A stretch of 64,000 nucleotides of DNA from an uncultured Bacteroidales bacterium (GTDB lineage: Bacteria > Bacteroidota > Bacteroidia > Bacteroidales > S143-33), in NCBI GenBank assembly GCA_964649975.1, contig CAZYSM010000007.1, positions 1,042 to 65,041 of the forward strand. Direction: 5' to 3'. Numbering within the stretch: position 1 is the first letter of the stretch; each line of letters starts with the position of its first letter. Of the stretch, positions 1-8,412 are shown piece after piece. The notes beneath the pieces were generated by a model, which was not told the DNA's origin, did no database searches, and saw nothing but the letters and a program-made list of their open reading frames with translations. A program made the translations under genes and the position numbers.

Positions 1-2501
1 ACAATCTCGTCCAGATTGCGCTCCATAAATAGAATTTTGTAAACGTGTTTGTCCGGAAGGTAAGGCAAGAGATGAGACACGATTTTTACGGCTTTGCCAG
101 AGAGATTGTCAAGGAAATCAGACTGTTGTGCGATTTTTTTCACAGCTTCGTGTTCGTAATATCCGCGCGGATTGTTCTCATCTTTTTCCCGTTTATGGTC
201 AGTGAAAATTTCTATTCCTGCCTGCTCAAGGATTTGCATCATCAAGGAAGTGCCAGAACGTGGAATTCCACTGACCACTATGATTGGATCTTTATCCGAT
301 GCCTGTGCAATGGCTTTTGTTTCTGGCTTTACGCGTAAGTCATCCGGCTGGTCTAATATCTGTTCCTGAAAATCTGAAATAAATTCCTGCGGAGAGGTGA
401 AGTATTTTCTGTGATGTTCGGCTTTTTCTGGATTGTTAAGATGTTTTTCATACAGGTCAATGAGGATGTTCCTTGCCCGGGTGAAGTTGGGAGCAATTAA
501 CAGAGTGACTTCCAGAGCCAGAGCTGCACGTTCATATTCGCCAAGTTCTTTGAGCGTCAGTCCCAGGAGATACTGTGTGCGGTAATTGTAATAAAGCAAT
601 GTGGCGGACTGTAAAAGATAGTCCAGAGCCAGTTGGTAATGGTTTTGCAAAAAAGCTACATAGCCAAGCTGATAAAGGACATTGGCATTTTCCGGGTCAA
701 GGTCATAGGCTTGTTGCAGGAATTTTTCCGCACTGGCAAAATCTTTTTTCAAAATGTAAATCTCTGCAATCTTGCTAAGAAAATCCGGATTAGGGATGAT
801 TTTTTCCTTTATCCCCAGGAGTAGGTCCAGAGCTTTGTTGTATTCTTTCTGATCGCTGTATAACGAGGCTTTGAAAATATCGGACAGATATTTATCCTTT
901 CTTGCGCCCTGTAATGCACGGCGTTTGTCAGATAGACGTTCTTGCAGTCGGGACAGTTCCTTTTCGTCTTTATCCTTGCTTTGGTGCAATTGCTGGATTT
1001 TACCAGAAAGTTCGGAAATTTCTTTTGTCAGATTGTCGGTATATTCTGCTAATTTCTGGTCAAAGGTCTTTATAACATCCCATGCACGGTCAGGGTCGGA
1101 TAATCTTTCGTAGCAGGTAGCCAGACGGATAGCAAACCTGCCCAGATGCGGTTCCTGGTCAAAGAGGTCCTGCAATATCAAAGCTGCTTTGTCAAAGAGA
1201 TTGGCAAACATATAAGAGCGAGCCAGATTGTAATTAAGCTCTCTCTGGGTCTTTTGTGCTGCCCGGAAACCGTCGCTGTCAGGTTTTTCAATGTAGCCCA
1301 GGTCAATGAGCTGTTGGAGAATTTCTGCCCGGTCGTAATTACTCTCAGCTGCGGATTTATTGTGGCGTCCGTCCTGCCCGGGGATTTTGTCCCAGGACGG
1401 AACAGTTTTTATTTCCGTGGGCTGGCGGAAAGCATTGACAAGCGGAACTCCGTCCATATCCTGTCCCACAGGCAATCCGTAGGCGTAAAGTATTGTAGGC
1501 GTTATATCCAGCAAAGATGCCCCGTAGATGCGTTCGTCTTGCTTGAACAGAGGTCCGTGCAAAAGCAAAATTCCGTAGTTACGGTGCTGGTAAGCCGGTC
1601 CGGCCGGCTCGGACGGAACAGCACGGGGACGCAGATGGTCAGAATGAAATCCGTGGTCCGAGAGCAAAATCAGATTTACATCATCGCCGGCAAGGTCCAG
1701 CAAAGCCCCGAGCATATAATCCTGCAAAATGTATGTGCCTTCCACAACCTGATTGAAAAGTTCATAATCCTCCTCTGGAATGTGCGGAAGCCGTGGCGGA
1801 TAATATTGCATAAATCCGTGGGACATGTGGTCAATGATGTCATAATAAACAGCCATAAATTCCCAAGAGGTGTTTTCCATTAGCCAAGTGGCCACGTTAT
1901 GCACGGAAAAGGTTGTGGCAAGGTTTTCGGTTATTCCTTGCAGACGTTTGGGATTTTTTTCCAGAATTTCCCTTGCCTGTGGCACGAGTGGCAATAGCAT
2001 CTCGCCGGAAATTTCTGGCAGGAGCAACCGCAGATGATTGAAAAATTCTGCAAATTCCGGCGGATGCACTGTTCCCTGCGGTAGAGGTTGGAATTTGAAA
2101 TCCTTAATTGCCTTGAAAAAGTTTGAAACCATAAAGCCATTTATAGGCTCTGCTGGATGCGAGGGCCACCAGTTAACCACATTGCAGAAATAACCATTTT
2201 GCGTCAGGATATTCCACACGGCTTTTGTCTTGCGTGAGAGCGAGGAAATTGGCTGCACTCCGCTCATATCTGCCAGAGGTTCGGAAAATCCCAGTACTCC
2301 GTGCTTGAATGGATATTTTCCTGTGGCAATGGTTGTCCAAAGCATAGGCGAGAACGGAGGATCAAGGGTGGCAATGTTCCCTATGGTACCAGAGTCAATC
2401 ACACGGGCAATAGTAGGCATTTTGCCCTGTTCCACCAGACGGTTAATAACTTTCCAGTCTGCACCGTCCCATCCCACAACGAGTAATTTAGTCTTTTTCA
2501 T
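1..2501 (-). CDS. Alkaline-phosphatase-superfamily (type I phosphodiesterase/nucleotide pyrophosphatase-like) - TPR - sulfotransferase fusion protein; 3' end runs off the window
   Basis: Not in the supplied ORF track because it is open at the window edge. My reverse-complement read from the ATG at 2501-2499 gives MKKTKLLVVGWDGADWKVINRLVEQGKMPT... Metal-ligand-type motifs IIDHMSHGF (about 1815-1840) and LLSDHGFHS (about 1640-1665) are present. TPR-like helical repeats span about 350-1100. A PAPS-binding-type loop VVSGIPRSGTSLMMQIL lies at about 240-290; I checked that it is in frame with the start. No minus-strand ORF starting at 2501 is listed, which fits an ORF with no stop inside the window. 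Confidence 0.75.
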   Translation of the reverse strand, partial: MKKTKLLVVGWDGADWKVINRLVEQGKMPTIARVIDSGTIGNIATLDPPFSPMLWTTIATGKYPFKHGVLGFSEPLADMSGVQPISSLSRKTKAVWNILTQNGYFCNVVNWWPSHPAEPINGFMVSNFFKAIKDFKFQPLPQGTVHPPEFAEFFNHLRLLLPEISGEMLLPLVPQAREILEKNPKRLQGITENLATTFSVHNVATWLMENTSWEFMAVYYDIIDHMSHGFMQYYPPRLPHIPEEDYELFNQVVEGTYILQDYMLGALLDLAGDDVNLILLSDHGFHSDHLRPRAVPSEPAGPAYQHRNYGILLLHGPLFKQDERIYGASLLDITPTILYAYGLPVGQDMDGVPLVNAFRQPTEIKTVPSWDKIPGQDGRHNKSAAESNYDRAEILQQLIDLGYIEKPDSDGFRAAQKTQRELNYNLARSYMFANLFDKAALILQDLFDQEPHLGRFAIRLATCYERLSDPDRAWDVIKTFDQKLAEYTDNLTKEISELSGKIQQLHQSKDKDEKELSRLQERLSDKRRALQGARKDKYLSDIFKASLYSDQKEYNKALDLLLGIKEKIIPNPDFLSKIAEIYILKKDFASAEKFLQQAYDLDPENANVLYQLGYVAFLQNHYQLALDYLLQSATLLYYNYRTQYLLGLTLKELGEYERAALALEVTLLIAPNFTRARNILIDLYEKHLNNPEKAEHHRKYFTSPQEFISDFQEQILDQPDDLRVKPETKAIAQASDKDPIIVVSGIPRSGTSLMMQILEQAGIEIFTDHKREKDENNPRGYYEHEAVKKIAQQSDFLDNLSGKAVKIVSHLLPYLPDKHVYKILFMERNLDEI

Positions 2502-2751
2502 TGTCCTGATCCTTTTGGTGTGGAAACGGCGGGATAATCAAATGCTCATTATCAAAGCGCCATCCACGGGCTTTGCGGAGTGCAATGGTGGCTTTATAGC
2601 CCAGAGCCATGAGAGAAAGGCTGCCCGCAGGCGTTATAGGGATTTCTTTACCGTCCGGGGTAATGAACCTGTAATCTTTTTCATACAGGTCTTTTAGCAA
2701 TTGTATGGTTAAGGTGTCAGTCATAGTTATATAAGAAATTTTTATAAGCAC
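2488..2751 (-). CDS. small hypothetical protein (87 aa; alternative start at 2724 giving MTDTLTIQ...)
   Basis: ORF track. Its last 14 nt overlap the ATG of the downstream fusion gene (2501), suggesting translational coupling. Its base composition resembles the downstream gene rather than the AT-rich upstream TIR gene. I recognise no family. Confidence 0.5.
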   Translation of the reverse strand: MLIKISYITMTDTLTIQLLKDLYEKDYRFITPDGKEIPITPAGSLSLMALGYKATIALRKARGWRFDNEHLIIPPFPHQKDQDNEKD

Positions 2752-2787
2752 AGGAAAATTAGCTGGTTTGTTATTATGAGTTTTCAG

Positions 2788-4323
2788 TTAGTATTGCTTT
2801 ATTAATTCTTCTATTTTATTGAGTTTGTAAATTTTTTCGTCTATTAATGTTATTTGTTTTTGTGTTGGATAGGATAAATTTTGTTTCAGGAACAGAAGTA
2901 TCCTTTTTGCTTTTTCGTATTGATGTTGTCTGACTAATTGATTGGTATAGTTGATGTAATAGGCTACATACCGATTGTTTAACCTGTGAATGAAATCGTA
3001 TAAGATGATTTTTTTTGCTTGCGGAATATTTTTTAAAGAGATGAGAAAAGTAATTTTATTAAAAAGGGTTTTATGCGTTTGAGGATTGAATTTTCCGGAT
3101 TTTAAATAAATATCCACTTCTGTTTTTAAGTTGTTAACGGCCAGTATATAGGTAGAGTCCAGTTTATACTTCAATATTTTGTTTTGTTCCGGGCTGAGGC
3201 CAGTGTTTTCAAGATTAGTAAGTATTTCAAGGCTTTTGGTGTAGTTTTGATTATTGGAATAATAGTCAGCCAGGGCTAATGTTTTACGGAAATATTCATT
3301 GTTTAGCCCGGTGCTAACCTGTGTTGATGACCTGCTTTTTTCCTTAATGTGGGAGGTGCTGTAAAAACGGTAACCTGCTATTGATAAAATCACAATTAGA
3401 ACTAAGAAAATTATTGCTAAAAAGATAAGGAAATATTTTTTCGTAATATTTGCAGCTTGAGTTTTGTCCTGAGATAATGGGTTTTCAGATGATTTTGATT
3501 TTTTCTCTAATCTGTATAATAATTTTTTGGCTTTTTGATATTTTTCTTCAATTTCCTCTGAATGTCTGTGATTTAAAGCTTCTTTGAAGTATTTAACAGC
3601 TGTTTTGTAGTTTTTTTGTTCCAGGGCTTTTTCGGCTGTTTCTATATTTTTGTGGTATAAGATTTCTTCATTGCATATATGTATTTGTTCCCTTACGTAG
3701 TCTAAATCAGGTTCAAATCCGTCTTGATATAATTTTATAGCCTCTCTGTAAGTTTTTATAGCTTCGTGATATTTTTTTAGAGAAAAAAGAAATGCTGCTT
3801 TTTTTATAAGGTCTAAATATTGTTCCTGGATAGACATATTTTTATCTTCTTGTGAATCAGTGAAAATGGCTTCTTCTTTGTTTAGAGTAATATTGTGGCC
3901 GTTTGGTATAAAAATCTCCTCTATTTCTTTGATTATTTGATATAATGCGAGTTCTGTATTGCCCCAGTATTTATCTGTAACAGGAATTTTATTTTCAGGT
4001 TTTACATCCAGCTTTGCTATAATGGTATTTTCCCAATAGCAGGGTTCTAATAAAATGGCTATTGCCTTAATCTGACGGCCATTTATAAGGTTTTTCAGAA
4101 AATCTTTTTCTAAAAATCCGGAAGTTATGAAATCAACGCTTATTAATAGAAATAAAACATCCGGCCTGTTTTCAAATTCTTTTAAATTTATTTCGTTTTC
4201 AACTATAATCTGGTAGTATGAAAAAGATAAATTATTATTAAGTTCAAAAGCTTTTAAATGTTTTAAAAATCTGTGATATAAATATTTATTTTCTTGAGAA
4301 TAAGCTATAAAAATTCTTCTCAT
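2788..4323 (-). CDS. TIR-domain single-pass membrane protein (N-terminal TIR, TPR-like helical repeats, one TM helix, helical C-terminal domain)
   Basis: The N-terminus has the TIR_2-like pattern: RIFIAYSQEN..., DVLFLLISVDFITSGFLEKDFL (a conserved Glu candidate) and IKAIAILLEPCYWENT. Repeats such as YHEAIKTYREAIKLY and YKTAVKYFKEALNH follow. A hydrophobic segment FLIFLAIIFLVLIVILSIAGY is encoded at about 3372-3437. The C-terminal 190 aa are helical and TPR-like. Confidence 0.7.
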   Translation of the reverse strand: MRRIFIAYSQENKYLYHRFLKHLKAFELNNNLSFSYYQIIVENEINLKEFENRPDVLFLLISVDFITSGFLEKDFLKNLINGRQIKAIAILLEPCYWENTIIAKLDVKPENKIPVTDKYWGNTELALYQIIKEIEEIFIPNGHNITLNKEEAIFTDSQEDKNMSIQEQYLDLIKKAAFLFSLKKYHEAIKTYREAIKLYQDGFEPDLDYVREQIHICNEEILYHKNIETAEKALEQKNYKTAVKYFKEALNHRHSEEIEEKYQKAKKLLYRLEKKSKSSENPLSQDKTQAANITKKYFLIFLAIIFLVLIVILSIAGYRFYSTSHIKEKSRSSTQVSTGLNNEYFRKTLALADYYSNNQNYTKSLEILTNLENTGLSPEQNKILKYKLDSTYILAVNNLKTEVDIYLKSGKFNPQTHKTLFNKITFLISLKNIPQAKKIILYDFIHRLNNRYVAYYINYTNQLVRQHQYEKAKRILLFLKQNLSYPTQKQITLIDEKIYKLNKIEELIKQY

Positions 4324-4434
4324 AAACTTCTATGTCTCTGTGAATTAATGAAATAATCAGAATAAAATTGCATTTTGGAATAGATAAAGGTAAAATTTAA
4401 TTCTATTTTAATGAAAAATTTTTTATGGAATTAT

Positions 4435-4442
4435 TATTTTTG
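4435..4442 (+). promoter_or_regulatory. candidate Bacteroidota -7 promoter element (TAnnTTTG) upstream of the ParM-like gene
   Basis: tatttttg lies 39 nt upstream of the ATG at 4481. I saw no clear -33 TTTG at the expected spacing. Confidence 0.3.
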
Positions 4443-4480
4443 TCTATTAGGATTGGTATCAAAAACAAAATTTTACGAAT

Positions 4481-5506
4481 ATGGAAAATTTTAAAACAAT
4501 TATTTTTCCCAGCGTGTTTGAGCGTCATAATTCTGAATTGGATAAAGTGGCAGATAACTTATTGGATGGTCTGAAAATATTTCTCAATGGTGAGGCTTAT
4601 ATTATAGGCAATTTAGCTTTTTCCGAAGGATTAAATCCACACCGGACAATAAACAGCTCACCTGATGACCTTGATTACAATTTGTTTTTGTATGCAGCTC
4701 TGTTGTTGATAGATAATCAGGAAAACCGGCCTGTTTACCTGACTACCGGTTTCCCTTTTTCTACTTATAGGATTAATAAAGAACTTGCCGAGAAAATTAT
4801 AAAAGGTAAGCATATTATTGATTATGACGCCTCTACTTTTAGTGATAAGATGAAACTAAGTAAGGAGGTTAATGTTGCCAAGGTTGATATTCTGCCAGAG
4901 TTGCAGGGTAGTATTCTTGGTTTGAGAAAAGGCAAGAAAAAGGTTTCAGGAAATTTCTTTATAGTGAGCATTGGCTATGGTACTTTTGAAGCGGCTTTGA
5001 GCACTCCCAGCGGTATTGTGCAAAGAACAGCTGTTAGCACAAAAGGTATAGTCTATGCTATTGATATGCTTATTAAGGAGCTGGAAAAAAGTTATTATCT
5101 GGGATTGAAAACCAAACAGCAAATAGATAATTTCTTTCAGAGGGATTACATTATTTTGAACAGAAAGAGGATTGACATCCGGAAAATGAAGAGTGAGGTA
5201 CTTAATTCTTACTATGAAAATGTTATCTCTCCTGAGTTGAGAACAGCTTTTACGGATATTGATTTTGCCAAGGCCAATAAAATGTATATAACGGGTGGAG
5301 GAGCATTATACCCGGATTTGATAGATAATTTTTATACTGAGTTTGGTGAGATTGTTGATATTGAAGTAGTAGAAAATCCTTTGACTTTGGCCAGTGAAGG
5401 ATTTTTCTTGAACTCGCTGGAGAAAAAAGATGTTCTGGAAATACCTGTGGGGCTGGATATTGGTAATTCTAATACAGTATTGACAGTGTCAGATGTAAAA
5501 ATATAA
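4481..5506 (+). CDS. ParM/StbA-like actin-fold (ASKHA) ATPase, atypical: phosphate-1 motif located at the C-terminus
   Basis: Motifs occur in ParM-like order: KTIIFPSVF, NGEAYIIGNLA, TTGFPFSTY, ILPELQGS, FFIVSIGYGTFEA (phosphate-2-like), MYITGGGALY (adenosine motif). The C-terminal PVGLDIGNSNTVLTV (5447-5488) is phosphate-1-like. An in-frame TAG at 4448-4450 excludes an N-terminal extension. Confidence 0.75.
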   Translation: MENFKTIIFPSVFERHNSELDKVADNLLDGLKIFLNGEAYIIGNLAFSEGLNPHRTINSSPDDLDYNLFLYAALLLIDNQENRPVYLTTGFPFSTYRINKELAEKIIKGKHIIDYDASTFSDKMKLSKEVNVAKVDILPELQGSILGLRKGKKKVSGNFFIVSIGYGTFEAALSTPSGIVQRTAVSTKGIVYAIDMLIKELEKSYYLGLKTKQQIDNFFQRDYIILNRKRIDIRKMKSEVLNSYYENVISPELRTAFTDIDFAKANKMYITGGGALYPDLIDNFYTEFGEIVDIEVVENPLTLASEGFFLNSLEKKDVLEIPVGLDIGNSNTVLTVSDVKI

Positions 5507-5513
5507 TAAAAGA

Positions 5514-5552
5514 CAAAAAAGGCGGGGCAGCCTTGATGCCCCGCCTTTTTTA
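5514..5552. terminator. bidirectional rho-independent terminator between the ParM-like gene (+) and sufS (-)
   Basis: Perfect 9-bp stem ggcggggca (5521-5529) / tgccccgcc (5537-5545), flanked by an A-run upstream and a T-run downstream. Confidence 0.8.
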
Positions 5553-5553
5553 T

Positions 5554-6777
5554 TTATACCAGCATTTGTTTTGCTTTTTTTACAGCTTCAATAAAACGGT
5601 CAATTTCCTCAAAGGTGTTGTACATAGCAAAGCTGGCGCGTGCTGTACCCGGGATGCCCAGACGATACATCAAAGGATGTGTGCAGTGTTTACCTGTGCG
5701 CACAGCAATGCCCATCTGGTCAAGTATCATGCCTACGTCATTGTTATGAGCGCCCTCTATGTTAAATGAAAGCACACTGATTTTATTATCTTCTTTTGTA
5801 GCATATACGGTAATGCCCTCTATTTCCTGTATTTTATCAATGGCATAGTTAAGCAATTGTTTTTCATATTCTTCAATGTTATCCATGCCTATTGCGGAAA
5901 TATAGTCAATTGCAGCTCCCAGACTAATAGCTCCGGCATAGTTTGTTGTTCCGGCTTCAAATTTCAGAGGCAGGTCCTGGAAGATTGTTTTTTCCAGTGT
6001 AACGTCTTTAATCATATCACCACCGAACTGATAAGGAGGCAGTTTTTCCAGCCATTGTTCTTTGCCATAGATTACTCCTATTCCTGTTTCTGCATATATT
6101 TTATGTCCGGAGAATGCAAGGAAATCGCAATCAAGTTCCTGGACATTAATTTTTTCGTGCTGTATGGATTGCGCAGCATCAATAAGCACAGGTACACCCT
6201 GGTTGTGAGCATAGTCAATGAATTTTTTTATCGGGTTGATAGTGCCCAGGCTGTTTGATACGTGTGGAAGTGCAACAATTTTTGTTTTTTCCGAGAACAA
6301 TTTTTTATAGGCCTCAAAGTCCAGCTGATAATCCTCTGTAATTGGTACGGCTTTAAGTTTGGCACCTTTTAACAGAGCTATTTGTTGCCAGGGAACAATA
6401 TTAGCGTGATGGTCCATTTCGCTAATAATTATTTCATCACCTTCAGAGATAAAAGCCTGGGCAAAGGTAGTGGCGATGAGGTTTATACTTTCGGTAGTTC
6501 CTCGGGTAAATATTATTTCGTAATCGTTTGCAGCGCCAATGAAATTTTTGACTTTTTTGCGAGCCTGTTCATATAAATCTGTAGATAAATTACTTAGATA
6601 ATGTACTCCGCGGTGGATGTTTGCATTTTTATGCTTATAAAAGTCAGCAACTGCTTCAATTACCTGAATGGGCTTTTGAGTAGTAGCAGCATTGTCCAGA
6701 TATACCAGTGGATATCCATTTACCTGCTGATGAAGCACCGGAAAGTCCTGGCGGATTTTGTTTACATCAAGTTTCAT
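5554..6777 (-). CDS. sufS: cysteine desulfurase, SufS-type (class V aminotransferase)
   Basis: Motifs LVYLDNAATTQKP, HHANIVPW, FSGHKIY (PLP Lys) and RTGKHCTHPL (catalytic Cys loop). Confidence 0.9.
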   Translation of the reverse strand: MKLDVNKIRQDFPVLHQQVNGYPLVYLDNAATTQKPIQVIEAVADFYKHKNANIHRGVHYLSNLSTDLYEQARKKVKNFIGAANDYEIIFTRGTTESINLIATTFAQAFISEGDEIIISEMDHHANIVPWQQIALLKGAKLKAVPITEDYQLDFEAYKKLFSEKTKIVALPHVSNSLGTINPIKKFIDYAHNQGVPVLIDAAQSIQHEKINVQELDCDFLAFSGHKIYAETGIGVIYGKEQWLEKLPPYQFGGDMIKDVTLEKTIFQDLPLKFEAGTTNYAGAISLGAAIDYISAIGMDNIEEYEKQLLNYAIDKIQEIEGITVYATKEDNKISVLSFNIEGAHNNDVGMILDQMGIAVRTGKHCTHPLMYRLGIPGTARASFAMYNTFEEIDRFIEAVKKAKQMLV

Positions 6778-6849
6778 GGCAGCTTTTTTTTGACTAAAAT
6801 AAAATTTTAGACTTTATTCCGAAAAGTTCTGAAAATGTTTTACAATATT

Positions 6850-8412
6850 TTATTTATCAGAGGTAGGAGGGAGTTTTTTAAGGTTTATCTGTCGTTGGAG
6901 TATATAATCAGAGGATTTGATATTGAGGTTTTCCTTAAAGAGTGTTTCGCCATTATATGGGTTTTGTATCAAAAGGTTGTATTCGTGATATGGTTTGGTC
7001 AGGAAAATGAATTTTCCTTTTTCATCTGGTTTTGCAAAGTATTCTGCACCTGTAATTTTGTCTTTTATTTTGACTATGAGGTTGTTAGGTTTTGTAAAGC
7101 CAGCCAGATGGCAGATATTGACCTGATAGTCTTTTTTCAAATATCTAAATTCCACTTTGTATATATCAGCATTTCCCAGTCCTCCAGGACGGTTTGAGGC
7201 AAAGAAAGCCGTGCTGGAGTCAACAGGGTAAAAGAAAATATCGTCATAGATTGTGTTAATCGGATATGGGAGACCCTGGGCCTGCCCCCATTGTCCAAAT
7301 TCGTCTTTTTCCGAGACAAATATGTCGTAGCCACCAAGGCTGTTATGGCCGTTGGAGGCAAAGTAAAGATGCTTACCGTCAGGAGTTATATAAGGAGCAT
7401 CTTCGTCTGCTGCTGTGTTAATATTAGGACCGAGATTTATGGGTTTTGTCCATGTTCCGTCGTTCTGAAGCTTGGTCATCCAGATATCCATACCACCAAA
7501 GCCTCCGGGACGGTCAGAGGAGAAATACAATATTTTTCCGTCGGAGGTAATAGATCCATGGTTTTCGGAATTATTAGTGTTAATCGGTCGTGGAAATTTA
7601 TGCAGCTTTGTCCAACGTCCGTTGATTAGCTTTGCCCAGTATAGATTTCCGTTACCGTCATCTTTGTAGAGGATAAGTATTTTATTATCCGGATTAAGGC
7701 TACAACTGGCTTCATTAAAGAGTGTGTCAACTACTTTTACCGGACGGGCAGGAGACCACTGGTCTGTGATAGTATTATACTCGGAATAGAAAATATTTTC
7801 GTCATATTGTTGGTCTTTGTACAAAACGGAGTTCTTATCCACTTTACGGCGGGAGGTGAAAAGAAGCAATTGATTATCTTTATCATAAATGGGCGAATGC
7901 TCAGTGTATAAAGAGTTAATATTTTTACCGAGATTGGTTACTTCTACAAAGTTGTCAACTTTTTGGTCAATTGAATCGAGCAAATCTCCTACAATAAGCA
8001 AGAAATCGTCAGGCAGATATTCTTCCTGGTCAAGATGTTGAAGTATTCTTACAGCACTATCCAGATTGTTGGTGAGGTAATAGGCATAAGCTTTGTAAAA
8101 TTGCAGGGCTGTTTTGCTGATTTTTTTTCTATCCCGTGGACGGAATAGATCGGAAGCTGTCAGGAATTGGCTGAGAGCACTATCTGCTTTTCCCTTGGTA
8201 TGTAAGTAAGCAATCCCAAGTTTGTAGTAAAATTCTGCATTTGTTGGGTCAAAGGCTATCATCTGCTTATAAAGCCTTATAGCCCCGCTAAAATCTATTT
8301 CATAGAATAGATGGAGAGATGTAGGCAGGGAGTCCTGCTTGGAATCAATAGTTTGTCCTATTCCAAGCAAAAAGCTAAAAATCAGAATATATGTCAGAAT
8401 TATTTTTTTCAT
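6850..8412 (-). CDS. secreted TPR + PD40 (TolB-like beta-propeller repeat) protein
   Basis: I chose the start at MKKIILTYILIFSFLLG (signal peptide) rather than the ORF-track start at 8448. TPR-like segments include FYYKLGIAYL. Repeated PD40-type motifs: LLFTSRR, ILYFSSDRPGGFGGMDIWM, HLYFASNGHNSLGGYDIFV, FFASNRPGGLGNADIYKV. It overlaps the ribD 3' end by 38 nt. Confidence 0.8.
   Translation of the reverse strand: MKKIILTYILIFSFLLGIGQTIDSKQDSLPTSLHLFYEIDFSGAIRLYKQMIAFDPTNAEFYYKLGIAYLHTKGKADSALSQFLTASDLFRPRDRKKISKTALQFYKAYAYYLTNNLDSAVRILQHLDQEEYLPDDFLLIVGDLLDSIDQKVDNFVEVTNLGKNINSLYTEHSPIYDKDNQLLLFTSRRKVDKNSVLYKDQQYDENIFYSEYNTITDQWSPARPVKVVDTLFNEASCSLNPDNKILILYKDDGNGNLYWAKLINGRWTKLHKFPRPINTNNSENHGSITSDGKILYFSSDRPGGFGGMDIWMTKLQNDGTWTKPINLGPNINTAADEDAPYITPDGKHLYFASNGHNSLGGYDIFVSEKDEFGQWGQAQGLPYPINTIYDDIFFYPVDSSTAFFASNRPGGLGNADIYKVEFRYLKKDYQVNICHLAGFTKPNNLIVKIKDKITGAEYFAKPDEKGKFIFLTKPYHEYNLLIQNPYNGETLFKENLNIKSSDYILQRQINLKKLPPTSDK

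Follow-up and report, generated by a model that had tools for sequence, protein, structure and literature searches.

We describe here a gene at positions 4481-5506 of a 64,000-nucleotide stretch of DNA from an uncultured Bacteroidales bacterium (contig CAZYSM010000007.1; the whole stretch is called the window below). With a probability of roughly 80%, we consider this gene to encode a natural circular permutant of the ParM/actin-like protein (ALP) lineage of the actin fold, belonging to a chromosomal branch that likely forms a cytoskeletal filament, often together with a bactofilin. The phosphate-1 (P1) strand-loop-strand, instead of opening the protein, is the last element of its chain. A circular permutation had been put forward in the original prediction, made from the letters of the window, and this proposal is now supported by the split of the homologs into two classes, by the topology of the canonical relatives and by a de-permutation test with shuffled controls.

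The original prediction had also noted ParM-type motifs in the usual order, a Ser in place of the Asp of the phosphate-2 (P2) motif, the absence of P1 from the N-terminus, a P1 motif in the last ~25 residues, an in-frame TAG excluding an upstream extension and a terminator directly after the stop codon; each of these observations was borne out. Indeed, all the quoted motifs lie at their expected positions (table 1), with NGEAYIIGNLA at residues 36-46, and the invariant Glu140 is equivalent to the glutamate of ParM VMPES, where canonical relatives read V-I-P-Q-P. The four motifs of the nucleotide site, namely phosphate-1 (residues 324-332), connect-1 (E140), phosphate-2 (163-170, with Ser163 as the substituted residue) and adenosine (GGG, 272-274), are all present, but not in the canonical order with phosphate-1 first. 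P1 was found at residues ~321-337, with a loop that reads D326-I-G328-N329-S-N-T332 inside the flanking stretch EIPVGLDIGNSNTVLTVSD (residues 320-338, nucleotides 5438-5494), and the protein carries just nine residues after T332. At the other end of the chain, the Pfam profile ALP_N (PF17989) matches the window protein with 54.4 bits (E=2.1e-14, for a cut-off of 26.3) and pairs residues 4-140 with positions 16-145 of the 148 in the profile. Positions 1-15, left without counterpart, hold the P1 strand-loop-strand, so that an N-terminal P1 is absent. A frame check detected no ATG, GTG or TTG between the in-frame TAG and the ATG at 4481, and an N-terminal extension of the open reading frame (ORF) is therefore impossible.

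The same architecture is found throughout a large family. Among 5.8 billion proteins searched, 226 relatives were retrieved; they are mostly 338-358 aa long and bear source names that include ‘ParM/StbA family protein’ and ‘hypothetical protein’, and the ALP_N domain is precomputed on most of these homologs. Relatives occur in at least 251 species, according to a scan with one genome per species, and their hosts comprise rumen and gut Bacteroidales, Odoribacter, Culturomica, Sanguibacteroides, Azobacteroides, Cytophagales (including Roseivirga, Cyclobacteriaceae and Penaeicola), Balneolales and Rhodothermales. Family homologs are located on chromosomes of 3-8 Mb. We aligned 27 and then 91 family members, the latter sharing 46-65% identity with the query: no sequence in either alignment has an N-terminal P1, and all of them start around x-x-F-P-S-V. 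Within the C-terminal motif, the 91 homologs show no variation at G324, D326, G328 and N329 and almost none at A322 and T332, far more conservation than chance would give; outside the hairpin, the invariant positions are E140, S163, G165, G167, E170 and G272-G274. All elements of the nucleotide site are under strong purifying selection.

More distant relatives provide the comparison with the ordinary topology. An exhaustive HMMER search with the family profile, run over 1.84 billion representatives, yielded 294 matches, and the full-length matches outside the family form two classes. Proteins of the first class stay co-linear with the profile up to and including the terminal hairpin (profile 27-338 versus protein 30-339 in one example); these permuted relatives start with [FY]-P-S-[VL]-[VI]-A and end with G-[IV]-D-[IV]-G-N-x-x-T. 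Proteins of the second, canonical class are shifted by an offset of ~+20 residues (profile 4 against protein ~22), and their match stops before profile position ~317. They start with G-[IL]-D-[LV]-G-[FY]-G-x-x-K, followed ~10 residues on by F-P-S-[VI]-V-G, and end just after the last helix, that is where the linker of the window protein begins. Regular expressions applied to 68 full-length relatives located P1 at the C-terminus only in 31, at the N-terminus only in 33 and at both ends in none; the four sequences missed proved on inspection to be three N-terminal variants and one degenerate C-terminal form.

Two further analyses link the segments found at the two ends. A hidden Markov model (HMM) of the canonical N-terminal hairpin alone, which covers ~10 residues and hence yields low scores, scored best at the C-terminal motif for 137 of 142 permuted proteins, and most of the remaining matches fall on phosphate-2, the structural paralogue of P1. 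In the de-permutation test, the last ~24 residues were moved to the front and the resulting sequences were compared with an HMM built from 12 canonical relatives. Native family sequences obtain ~104 bits, enter this model at position ~21 and never reach position 8 or earlier (0%). Once de-permuted, 95% of them extend to position 8 or earlier, and the score rises for 111 of 112 (median +5.3 bits). The controls behaved otherwise: 2.7% of sequences reached these positions with a shuffled hairpin (+0.5 bits) and 23% with a reversed one (+1.5 bits), and truncation brought no change. When the window protein is de-permuted, its ALP_N match rises from 54.4 to 63.5 bits and its coverage extends from 16-145 to 1-145. 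Relatives thus exist that carry the same segment at the opposite terminus and are co-linear over the rest, which is the criterion of a natural circular permutant, here applied to sequences. No account of permutation in a ParM, an actin or an ASKHA protein turned up in our searches of an incomplete full-text corpus, and an earlier mention may exist elsewhere; by this literature search, the permuted ParM-type actin appears to be new, its fold and lineage being already known.

These permuted proteins appear to be related by descent. A neighbour-joining tree from which the hairpins were cut out, so that it covers nothing but the shared core (293 columns; 29 permuted and 36 canonical sequences), recovers the split between permuted and canonical proteins. 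At most one taxon is misplaced in 100 of 100 bootstrap replicates, and this taxon is P0223 in 68 of them. One origin therefore has good support, in these core alignments, for the Bacteroidota family together with the P0178, P0201, P0209 and P0188-type groups. The P0223 subgroup, in which P1 reads D-x-G-N-x-x-L-K and P2 reads Q-x-G-x-G-D, may share this origin or may result from a second permutation event. As far as alignments can tell, the permuted architecture is old, being common to remote relatives at 22-26% identity.

The relocation of P1 is linked to a change in P2. The first Asp of this motif helps to position the catalytic Mg2+ and water in actin, ParM and Hsp70. In the permuted relatives, P2 reads S-x-G-[FY]-G-T-x-E in 27 of 31 cases, plus one with Gln, versus D-x-G-x-x-T-x-D in 26 of the 33 canonical relatives. 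Connect-1 differs as well, with P-E in the permuted family versus P-Q-P in canonical relatives.

Structure prediction is consistent with this picture. The AlphaFold2 model of the window protein, computed with the 91-sequence alignment, has a mean predicted local distance difference test score (pLDDT) of 94.2 and a predicted TM-score (pTM) of 0.91, and its secondary-structure string is that of an actin fold. After the last helix (303-315), the chain forms strands at 321-327 and 331-337, with block pLDDT of 94 and 86. A second model, of the Odoribacter homolog P0109 (49% identity), reaches a pLDDT of 91, pTM being 0.89-0.91 across both models. The linker of Odoribacter-type homologs is extended by ~19 aa in the alignment, and in the P0109 model this insertion is disordered (residues 328-333 have pLDDT below 50), the hairpin block being back at 93. 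The possibility, raised beforehand, that the C-terminal segment would be disordered is thus not what the two independent models predict, as both give an ordered C-terminal β-hairpin with pLDDT of about 86-94. Compared with the PDB by Foldseek, whose alignments are sequential only, the model finds its best match in pCBH ParM (6ixw, E=3e-16, TM 0.74), followed by Ta0583, Dh-cParM1, CorM, pSK41 ParM, Alp12 and Alp7A, and then by MreB, R1 ParM and MamK. A total of 824 PDB chains were matched at E<=1e-3, and the best 50 of these 824 are ParM, Alp, Ta0583, MreB, MamK and related actin-family chains. The profile comparison suggested earlier for a ParM or ASKHA match gave the same result, with ALP_N well above its cut-off and ParM structures as the best Foldseek matches. 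MreB profiles stay below their thresholds (16.8 bits versus 27 for Pfam MreB_Mbl, PF06723; 15.8 versus 293 for NCBIfam NF010539). Matches to RRM and DHFR in a single-sequence PDB search (E>1e-4) were rejected as spurious. Overall, a two-domain actin fold with an ordered C-terminal hairpin is predicted with high confidence.

In the chromosomal branch, the gene has a recurrent neighbour. In 45 of 82 family loci, the next gene downstream, on the same strand, encodes a bactofilin (PF04519), usually after a gap of 0-15 nt, with PF04519 matches of E=1e-18 to 1e-23 in five lineages. This pairing is found in Roseivirgaceae, Cyclobacteriaceae, Penaeicola, Balneolales, Rhodothermales and Sanguibacteroides, and not in rumen Bacteroidales or most Odoribacteraceae. 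Nearly all the ALP-paired bactofilins (43/45) end in Trp after an acidic low-complexity and otherwise unconserved tail (…DNYGxVAW, …DRFW, …FRSW, …PRTW); this C-terminal Trp peptide looks like a docking peptide. The chromosomal position is stable within genera; for example, ~30 Roseivirgaceae-type loci share the same flanking genes. In a searchable literature corpus that is incomplete, we found neither the ALP-bactofilin pair nor an actin-like partner of any bactofilin system.

The permuted proteins themselves also vary at their ends. Clade-specific conserved terminal peptides follow the P1 hairpin (…IP[AS][ED]Y, …L[RK]FK, …[FY][EK]P[DTA]FS); they were seen in the long forms P0063, P0065, P0072, P0075, P0094 and P0119, in the rumen Bacteroidales loci L006-L034, and in L001 and other Roseivirga loci. 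In some Bacteroidales, an E/K-rich low-complexity linker of 110-220 residues comes before the …[FY][EK]P[DTA]FS tail, and tails of the …L[RK]FK or …[FY][EK]P[DTA]FS type are frequent in members without an adjoining bactofilin gene. At the opposite end, P0121 (454 aa) has a ~110-residue low-complexity N-terminal extension ahead of its FPSI strand. P0196 (378 aa) retains only the last ~60 family residues (…GIDIGNSNTVITQYEDINIESGNLRFK), joined to an unrelated acidic N-terminal region, and may be a gene fragment or a fusion. P0166 and P0153 are degenerate permuted members, whose P1 has decayed to MDIGRART and LDVDDRC and whose P2 has decayed to VDVETD; they may be pseudo-ATPases.

Distant permuted relatives are found in a different setting, next to genes of plasmids or other replicons. 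P0223, from a Silvanigrellaceae metagenome-assembled genome (MAG), adjoins TrfA, a resolvase and a BrnT/CopG toxin-antitoxin pair, and a 104-aa ORF starts 2 nt after its stop codon. P0198 lies near a Rep_1 gene; P0188 comes after genes for a family-B DNA polymerase and a 5'-3' exonuclease and has a 91-aa ORF downstream; P0209 is followed by an 89-aa ORF and P0201 by ORFs of 116 and 87 aa. Relatives of P0223 are carried by Pigmentibacter ruber pGTC16762-3 and by eight Aeromonas plasmids (e.g. IncU pMC64A), all annotated as ‘hypothetical protein’. The proteins of these two named plasmids were translated, and both are permuted and each is followed by a small ORF. By synteny, the small downstream ORF is present in L085, L086, L088, L090, L093 and L094. 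No Pfam family matched the small ORFs in this ParR position, whose charged tails end in aromatic or acidic peptides (...EEIATF, ...ESIEGW, ...IDSFFSN, ...DDDYDDLK); such tails resemble the ParM-binding tails of ParR adaptors (compare PDB 4a62).

Repeats accompany some of these genes. In L085, 23 tandem copies of an 11-bp unit (TATTTTACTAG-like) form two clusters at 4702-4963, upstream of P0209, and end 38 nt before the gene. In L086, the locus of P0223, the repeats at 4402-4688 and 4733-4995 comprise 22/23-bp iterons (TTAGGGCGTTATCACCCACC) next to trfA and short 11-bp arrays before the gene; these 22/23-bp iterons are replication-type. From this synteny, the cassettes of the distant permuted relatives would be parC-parM-parR systems built on a permuted ParM, and L093 and L094 are probably unrecognised partition cassettes. 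The L088 locus (2349-8353) carries a permuted ParM-like gene and two small downstream ORFs near an HSP70/MreB-like 604-aa protein, an HNH nuclease and a patatin-like phospholipase, a neighbourhood that looks like a defence island or mobile element. Searched against PLSDB plasmids, the window protein gave only weak partial matches to canonical Clostridium ParM/StbA; no match was obtained for P0201 among plasmids or for P0188 among phages.

In the window, which is AT-rich (GC content 38.8%), the order is a divergent gene for a 511-aa TPR/membrane protein, the ALP gene, a convergent sufS, a gene for a PD40/TPR protein, ribD and recF. The window is chromosomal, as indicated by sufS, ribD and recF, the housekeeping neighbours of the ALP gene. 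T-runs flank both sides of the terminator hairpin, which stands directly 3' of the ALP stop codon, and this terminator together with the convergent sufS leaves no ParR or bactofilin gene downstream in the same operon. The ALP gene is monocistronic in the window, hence any partner would have to be encoded elsewhere. Within the whole 64-kb window, we detected no bactofilin gene, no second ALP copy, no tRNA gene and no Rfam family at the gathering threshold. In the intergenic stretch 5' of the ALP gene, no direct-repeat family was found by a search that did detect the 11-bp arrays near distant permuted homologs, and this stretch is thus without a parC-like centromere. The label ‘ParM/StbA-like’ initially given to the gene accordingly holds for fold and lineage, and fails for function in the window, where a ParR gene, parC repeats and a plasmid context are all lacking.

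Table 1. Positions of the ALP gene, its motifs and its flanks in the window, and of selected genes in the loci of relatives (locus-specific numbering).
Feature	Position	Strand	Evidence or remark
CDS, circularly permuted ParM/ALP-type actin-fold protein (predicted)	4481..5506	+	ORF, 341 aa + stop; Pfam, AlphaFold2, Foldseek
In-frame TAG, upstream limit of the reading frame	4448..4450	+	sequence, frame check
AT-rich intergenic stretch, 157 bp, 5' of ALP gene	4324..4480	.	direct-repeat search
KTIIFPSVF, residues 5-13, new N-terminal strand = β3 of canonical ALPs (‘..FPSVVG’ strand after P1 hairpin)	4493..4519	+	alignment, HMM entry ~21, model strand 4-10
TTGFPFSTY, residues 88-96, β4 strand and turn of subdomain IA; G90, P92 invariant	4742..4768	+	alignments, model
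ILPELQGS, residues 137-144, end of β5 and connect-1 helix	4889..4912	+	E140 invariant in 91 sequences
Variant phosphate-2 FFIVSIGYGTFEA, residues 159-171: S163-x-G165-x-G167-T168-x-E170, versus D-x-G-x-x-T-x-D	4955..4993	+	S163, G165, G167, E170 invariant
Adenosine motif MYITGGGALY, residues 268-277; G272-G274 invariant	5282..5311	+	alignments; weak MreB_Mbl match over 265-308
Linker KKDVL, residues 316-320, last helix (303-315) to relocated hairpin	5426..5440	+	AlphaFold2 block 311-320, pLDDT 95
Relocated β1-P1-β2 hairpin IPVGLDIGNSNTVLTVS, residues 321-337	5441..5491	+	conservation, AlphaFold2 strands, HMM, de-permutation
Bidirectional intrinsic-terminator hairpin, common to ALP gene and convergent sufS	5513..5553	.	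17-bp stem, 8 GC pairs
sufS	5554-6777	-	Aminotran_5, E=8e-149
Bactofilin ORFs after permuted ALP (examples among 45 loci)	L001 7056-7514; L069 6027-6587; L061 5788-6369; L077 6121-6696; L075 6065-6469
Permuted ParM-like gene and small downstream ORF	L093 4001-5408		Aeromonas media pMC64A, NZ_CP047963.1
Permuted ParM-like gene and small downstream ORF	L094 4001-5323		Pigmentibacter ruber pGTC16762-3, AP029162.1

Two further elements were noticed around the ALP gene. The 511-aa protein (2788-4323, minus strand), transcribed divergently from it, combines TPR repeats and a single predicted transmembrane segment (…LIFLAIIFLVLIVILSIAG…) with a repeat region at its C-terminus; its ~145-aa N-terminal region, from ‘RRIFIAYS’, recalls a TIR domain and has no Pfam match. 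A homolog of this protein adjoins the ALP of P0005 (L096) in the same position (31% identity, E=1e-46), and we rejected the gene as a general ALP partner, its position being kept in only this one closely related locus. A perfect 12/12 sigma-70 match (TTGACA, 16 nt, TATAAT) at 5480-5507 on the plus strand lies in the last ALP codons and points into the terminator; it is probably due to chance in AT-rich DNA, the Bacteroidota promoter consensus being different.

Taken together, these data establish topology, homology, conservation and synteny, and lead us to propose the following scheme. By its sequence and predicted fold, the chain starts at the β3 strand of an ordinary ParM, runs through subdomains IB, IA, IIA and IIB and comes back to the last helix of IA, from which a 5-residue linker leads to the β1-P1-β2 hairpin that is N-terminal in ordinary actins. 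This hairpin would dock in cis beside the N-terminal strand (β3) and the TTGFP strand (β4), thereby rebuilding subdomain IA and the ATP site, and the permuted protein would bind ATP and polymerise like ParM. On plasmids, the permuted ParM would be the motor of a partition cassette, whereas the chromosomal branch of Bacteroidota and Rhodothermia would have been domesticated, with loss of ParR and parC and, in many lineages, a bactofilin in the ParR position. The bactofilin would act as an adaptor, perhaps held via its terminal Trp peptide in the groove used by ParR. The most likely role is thus that of a chromosomal cytoskeletal filament, in many species together with a bactofilin. A broader proposal, which we advance tentatively and at less than even odds, is that the permuted actins (C-terminal P1, co-evolved Ser-type P2) might be an unrecognised clade of filament-forming NTPases, at work both in plasmid parC-parM-parR cassettes and in a chromosomal module where bactofilin, bound via its Trp peptide, would replace ParR. 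If this were true, the chromosomal setting would offer the first direct actin-bactofilin cytoskeletal pair.

Several points weigh against the permuted filament that we favour. The exact split between permuted and canonical proteins appears in only 20-30 of 100 bootstrap replicates, as the P0223 subgroup floats. Similarity to solved ParMs is marginal, since a family-profile search of the PDB retrieved only Dh-cParM1 (E=0.003), and the fold assignment rests on Pfam and Foldseek for this reason. The location of the hairpin (321-337) at the nucleotide site is likewise suggested by pLDDT, secondary structure and homology. Coevolution was uninformative: in a mean-field direct coupling analysis of 205 permuted sequences (effective number 71), the strongest couplings of the hairpin seemed specific to domain I, yet control segments in domain II show the same bias (binomial p=0.22), and we dropped this analysis as evidence. 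Polymerisation and interaction with bactofilin are proposed from synteny, and the window has neither a bactofilin nor a ParR-like gene, so that function is least constrained precisely here. Finally, the family-wide replacement of the P2 Asp by Ser may make ATP hydrolysis slow, altered or absent; this possible difference in hydrolysis chemistry is the main biochemical uncertainty.

This last point opens the way to a degenerate or non-catalytic fold, in which permutation and Asp-to-Ser substitution would have abolished hydrolysis, while the fold and perhaps nucleotide binding would be retained; the protein would then serve as a static scaffold or regulator and not as a dynamic motor like ParM. 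The Ser found in 27 of 31 permuted relatives and the existence of clearly degenerate members (P0166, P0153) speak in this direction, and the Cb-cParM filaments, reported to be stable after hydrolysis, set a precedent for non-dynamic chromosomal ParMs (PMC12270681). We nevertheless regard such a loss as rather improbable: D326, G328, N329, E140, G165, G167, E170 and GGG272-274 are invariant at 46-65% identity, which is hard to explain without a working site, and relatives with the Ser-type P2 occur in iteron-bearing partition-like cassettes, where dynamics are normally needed.

The hairpin might also be swapped between protomers, each subunit donating it in trans to the next, which would couple the completing of the ATP site to oligomerisation or to the formation of filaments. 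Monomer AlphaFold2 predictions cannot tell cis from trans docking, and the hairpin does stand at the chain end, after a linker; some clades have a long, disordered version of it, with ~19 additional residues and a pLDDT below 50 in Odoribacter-type members. However, in most members the linker has ~5 residues and is predicted to be ordered (pLDDT 95), which fits a direct cis connection, and both monomer models are confident overall (pTM 0.89-0.91). Moreover, both termini of actin folds lie in subdomain IA, and closure in cis would be free of strain. A domain swap therefore seems unlikely to us.

It is more unlikely still that the window gene supplies the motor for a type II (parMRC) partition system in an integrated plasmid or other mobile element, even though distant permuted relatives occur in such cassettes and some databases label family members ‘plasmid segregation protein ParM’. 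Indeed, the terminator and convergent sufS leave no downstream ORF, direct repeats are missing upstream, and the gene sits among sufS, ribD and recF at a chromosomal position that is stable within genera. As for a local artefact, in which a frameshift, a misassembly or a wrong start would have removed the N-terminus and joined an unrelated P1-like peptide to the end, nothing beyond the unusual architecture favours it and it can be dismissed, since the same architecture recurs in 226 database proteins and at least 251 species genomes, among them isolates of Roseivirga, Cyclobacterium, Mongoliibacter and Odoribacter, independent metagenome contigs encode an identical protein, the upstream in-frame stop leaves no alternative start, and the homologs, examined on this very point, all keep the C-terminal motif and in no case have a normal N-terminal P1, which excludes a frameshift or assembly error.

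The permuted, chromosomal actin that we retain can be compared with several known systems. Its best structural matches are pCBH ParM (Clostridium botulinum; 6ixw, 6izr), Ta0583 (2fsj), pSK41 ParM (3js6), Alp12 (4apw) and Alp7A (5ec0), with E=3e-16 to 3e-12 and TM up to 0.74. Like this group, it has a two-domain actin fold of ~340 residues, the same element order from β3 to the last helix, and the Pfam domain ALP_N. Unlike them, it carries the hairpin last rather than first, its P2 starts with Ser rather than Asp, and identity is only 15-18%; moreover, these proteins are plasmid-borne (Ta0583 excepted), whereas the window gene is chromosomal and without ParR or parC. The nearest canonical ALP relatives by sequence (P0187, P0199, P0217 from a Halanaerobiales MAG, and P0233) show 21-23% identity over about 290 residues and share FPS[VI]V, Y-x-[VI]-G-x-x-A, TG[LF]P and GGG with the family; they differ by an N-terminal G-[IL]-D-x-G-[FY]-G-x-x-K, a P2 of the D-x-G-x-x-T-x-D type, a P-Q-P connect-1 and an end after the last helix.

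R1 ParM (parMRC; 1mwm, 4a61, 4a62) has a homologous fold (Foldseek E~1e-9). The layout of the R1 cassette is well known, and distant permuted relatives echo it with two 11-bp iteron clusters upstream and a small gene with an acidic or aromatic C-terminal tail downstream. The window gene differs from this system by its permuted topology and is without every other component, having no ParR neighbour, no parC array and no plasmid location. MreB shares the actin fold, the chromosomal location and a likely cytoskeletal role with the family, but is not permuted and ranks below ParM-type structures in Foldseek. The P1 sequence G-L-D-I-G-N-S-N-T seems closer to the D-L-G-T-x-N-T of MreB and Hsp70 than to the ParM form, and the G-T-x-E ending of P2 likewise seems MreB-like. 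Dh-cParM1 (8x1i) and Cb-cParM are ParM-type actins encoded on chromosomes, as is the window gene. Such chromosome-encoded ParMs have the canonical topology and come from Firmicutes, mostly with cParR genes, and the 2025 paper on these genome-encoded ParMs makes no mention of Bacteroidota, permutation or bactofilin (PMC12270681). As regards bactofilin modules (Caulobacter BacA, Helicobacter CcmA, Myxococcus BacNOP-PadC), the presence of a bactofilin after the family gene in 45 of 82 loci suggests a two-polymer module of ALP and bactofilin.

The actin/ASKHA fold ranks among the most intensively studied folds of proteins, and its motif order, with phosphate-1 first, serves as a signature for finding members of the group. 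A conserved permutant indicates that the ATP site can be assembled with a P1 hairpin taken from the other end of the chain, and constitutes a natural experiment that includes a linked Asp-to-Ser change in P2. Annotation probably overlooks partition systems, since the permuted ParMs on plasmids of Aeromonas and Pigmentibacter go under the name ‘hypothetical protein’. Permutation also leaves a free C-terminus immediately behind the catalytic hairpin, to which conserved tail peptides that vary from clade to clade have been attached. In the Bacteroidota, from rumen and gut Bacteroidales to Odoribacter and marine Cytophagales, the family represents a widespread and so far uncharacterised chromosomal actin-like protein.

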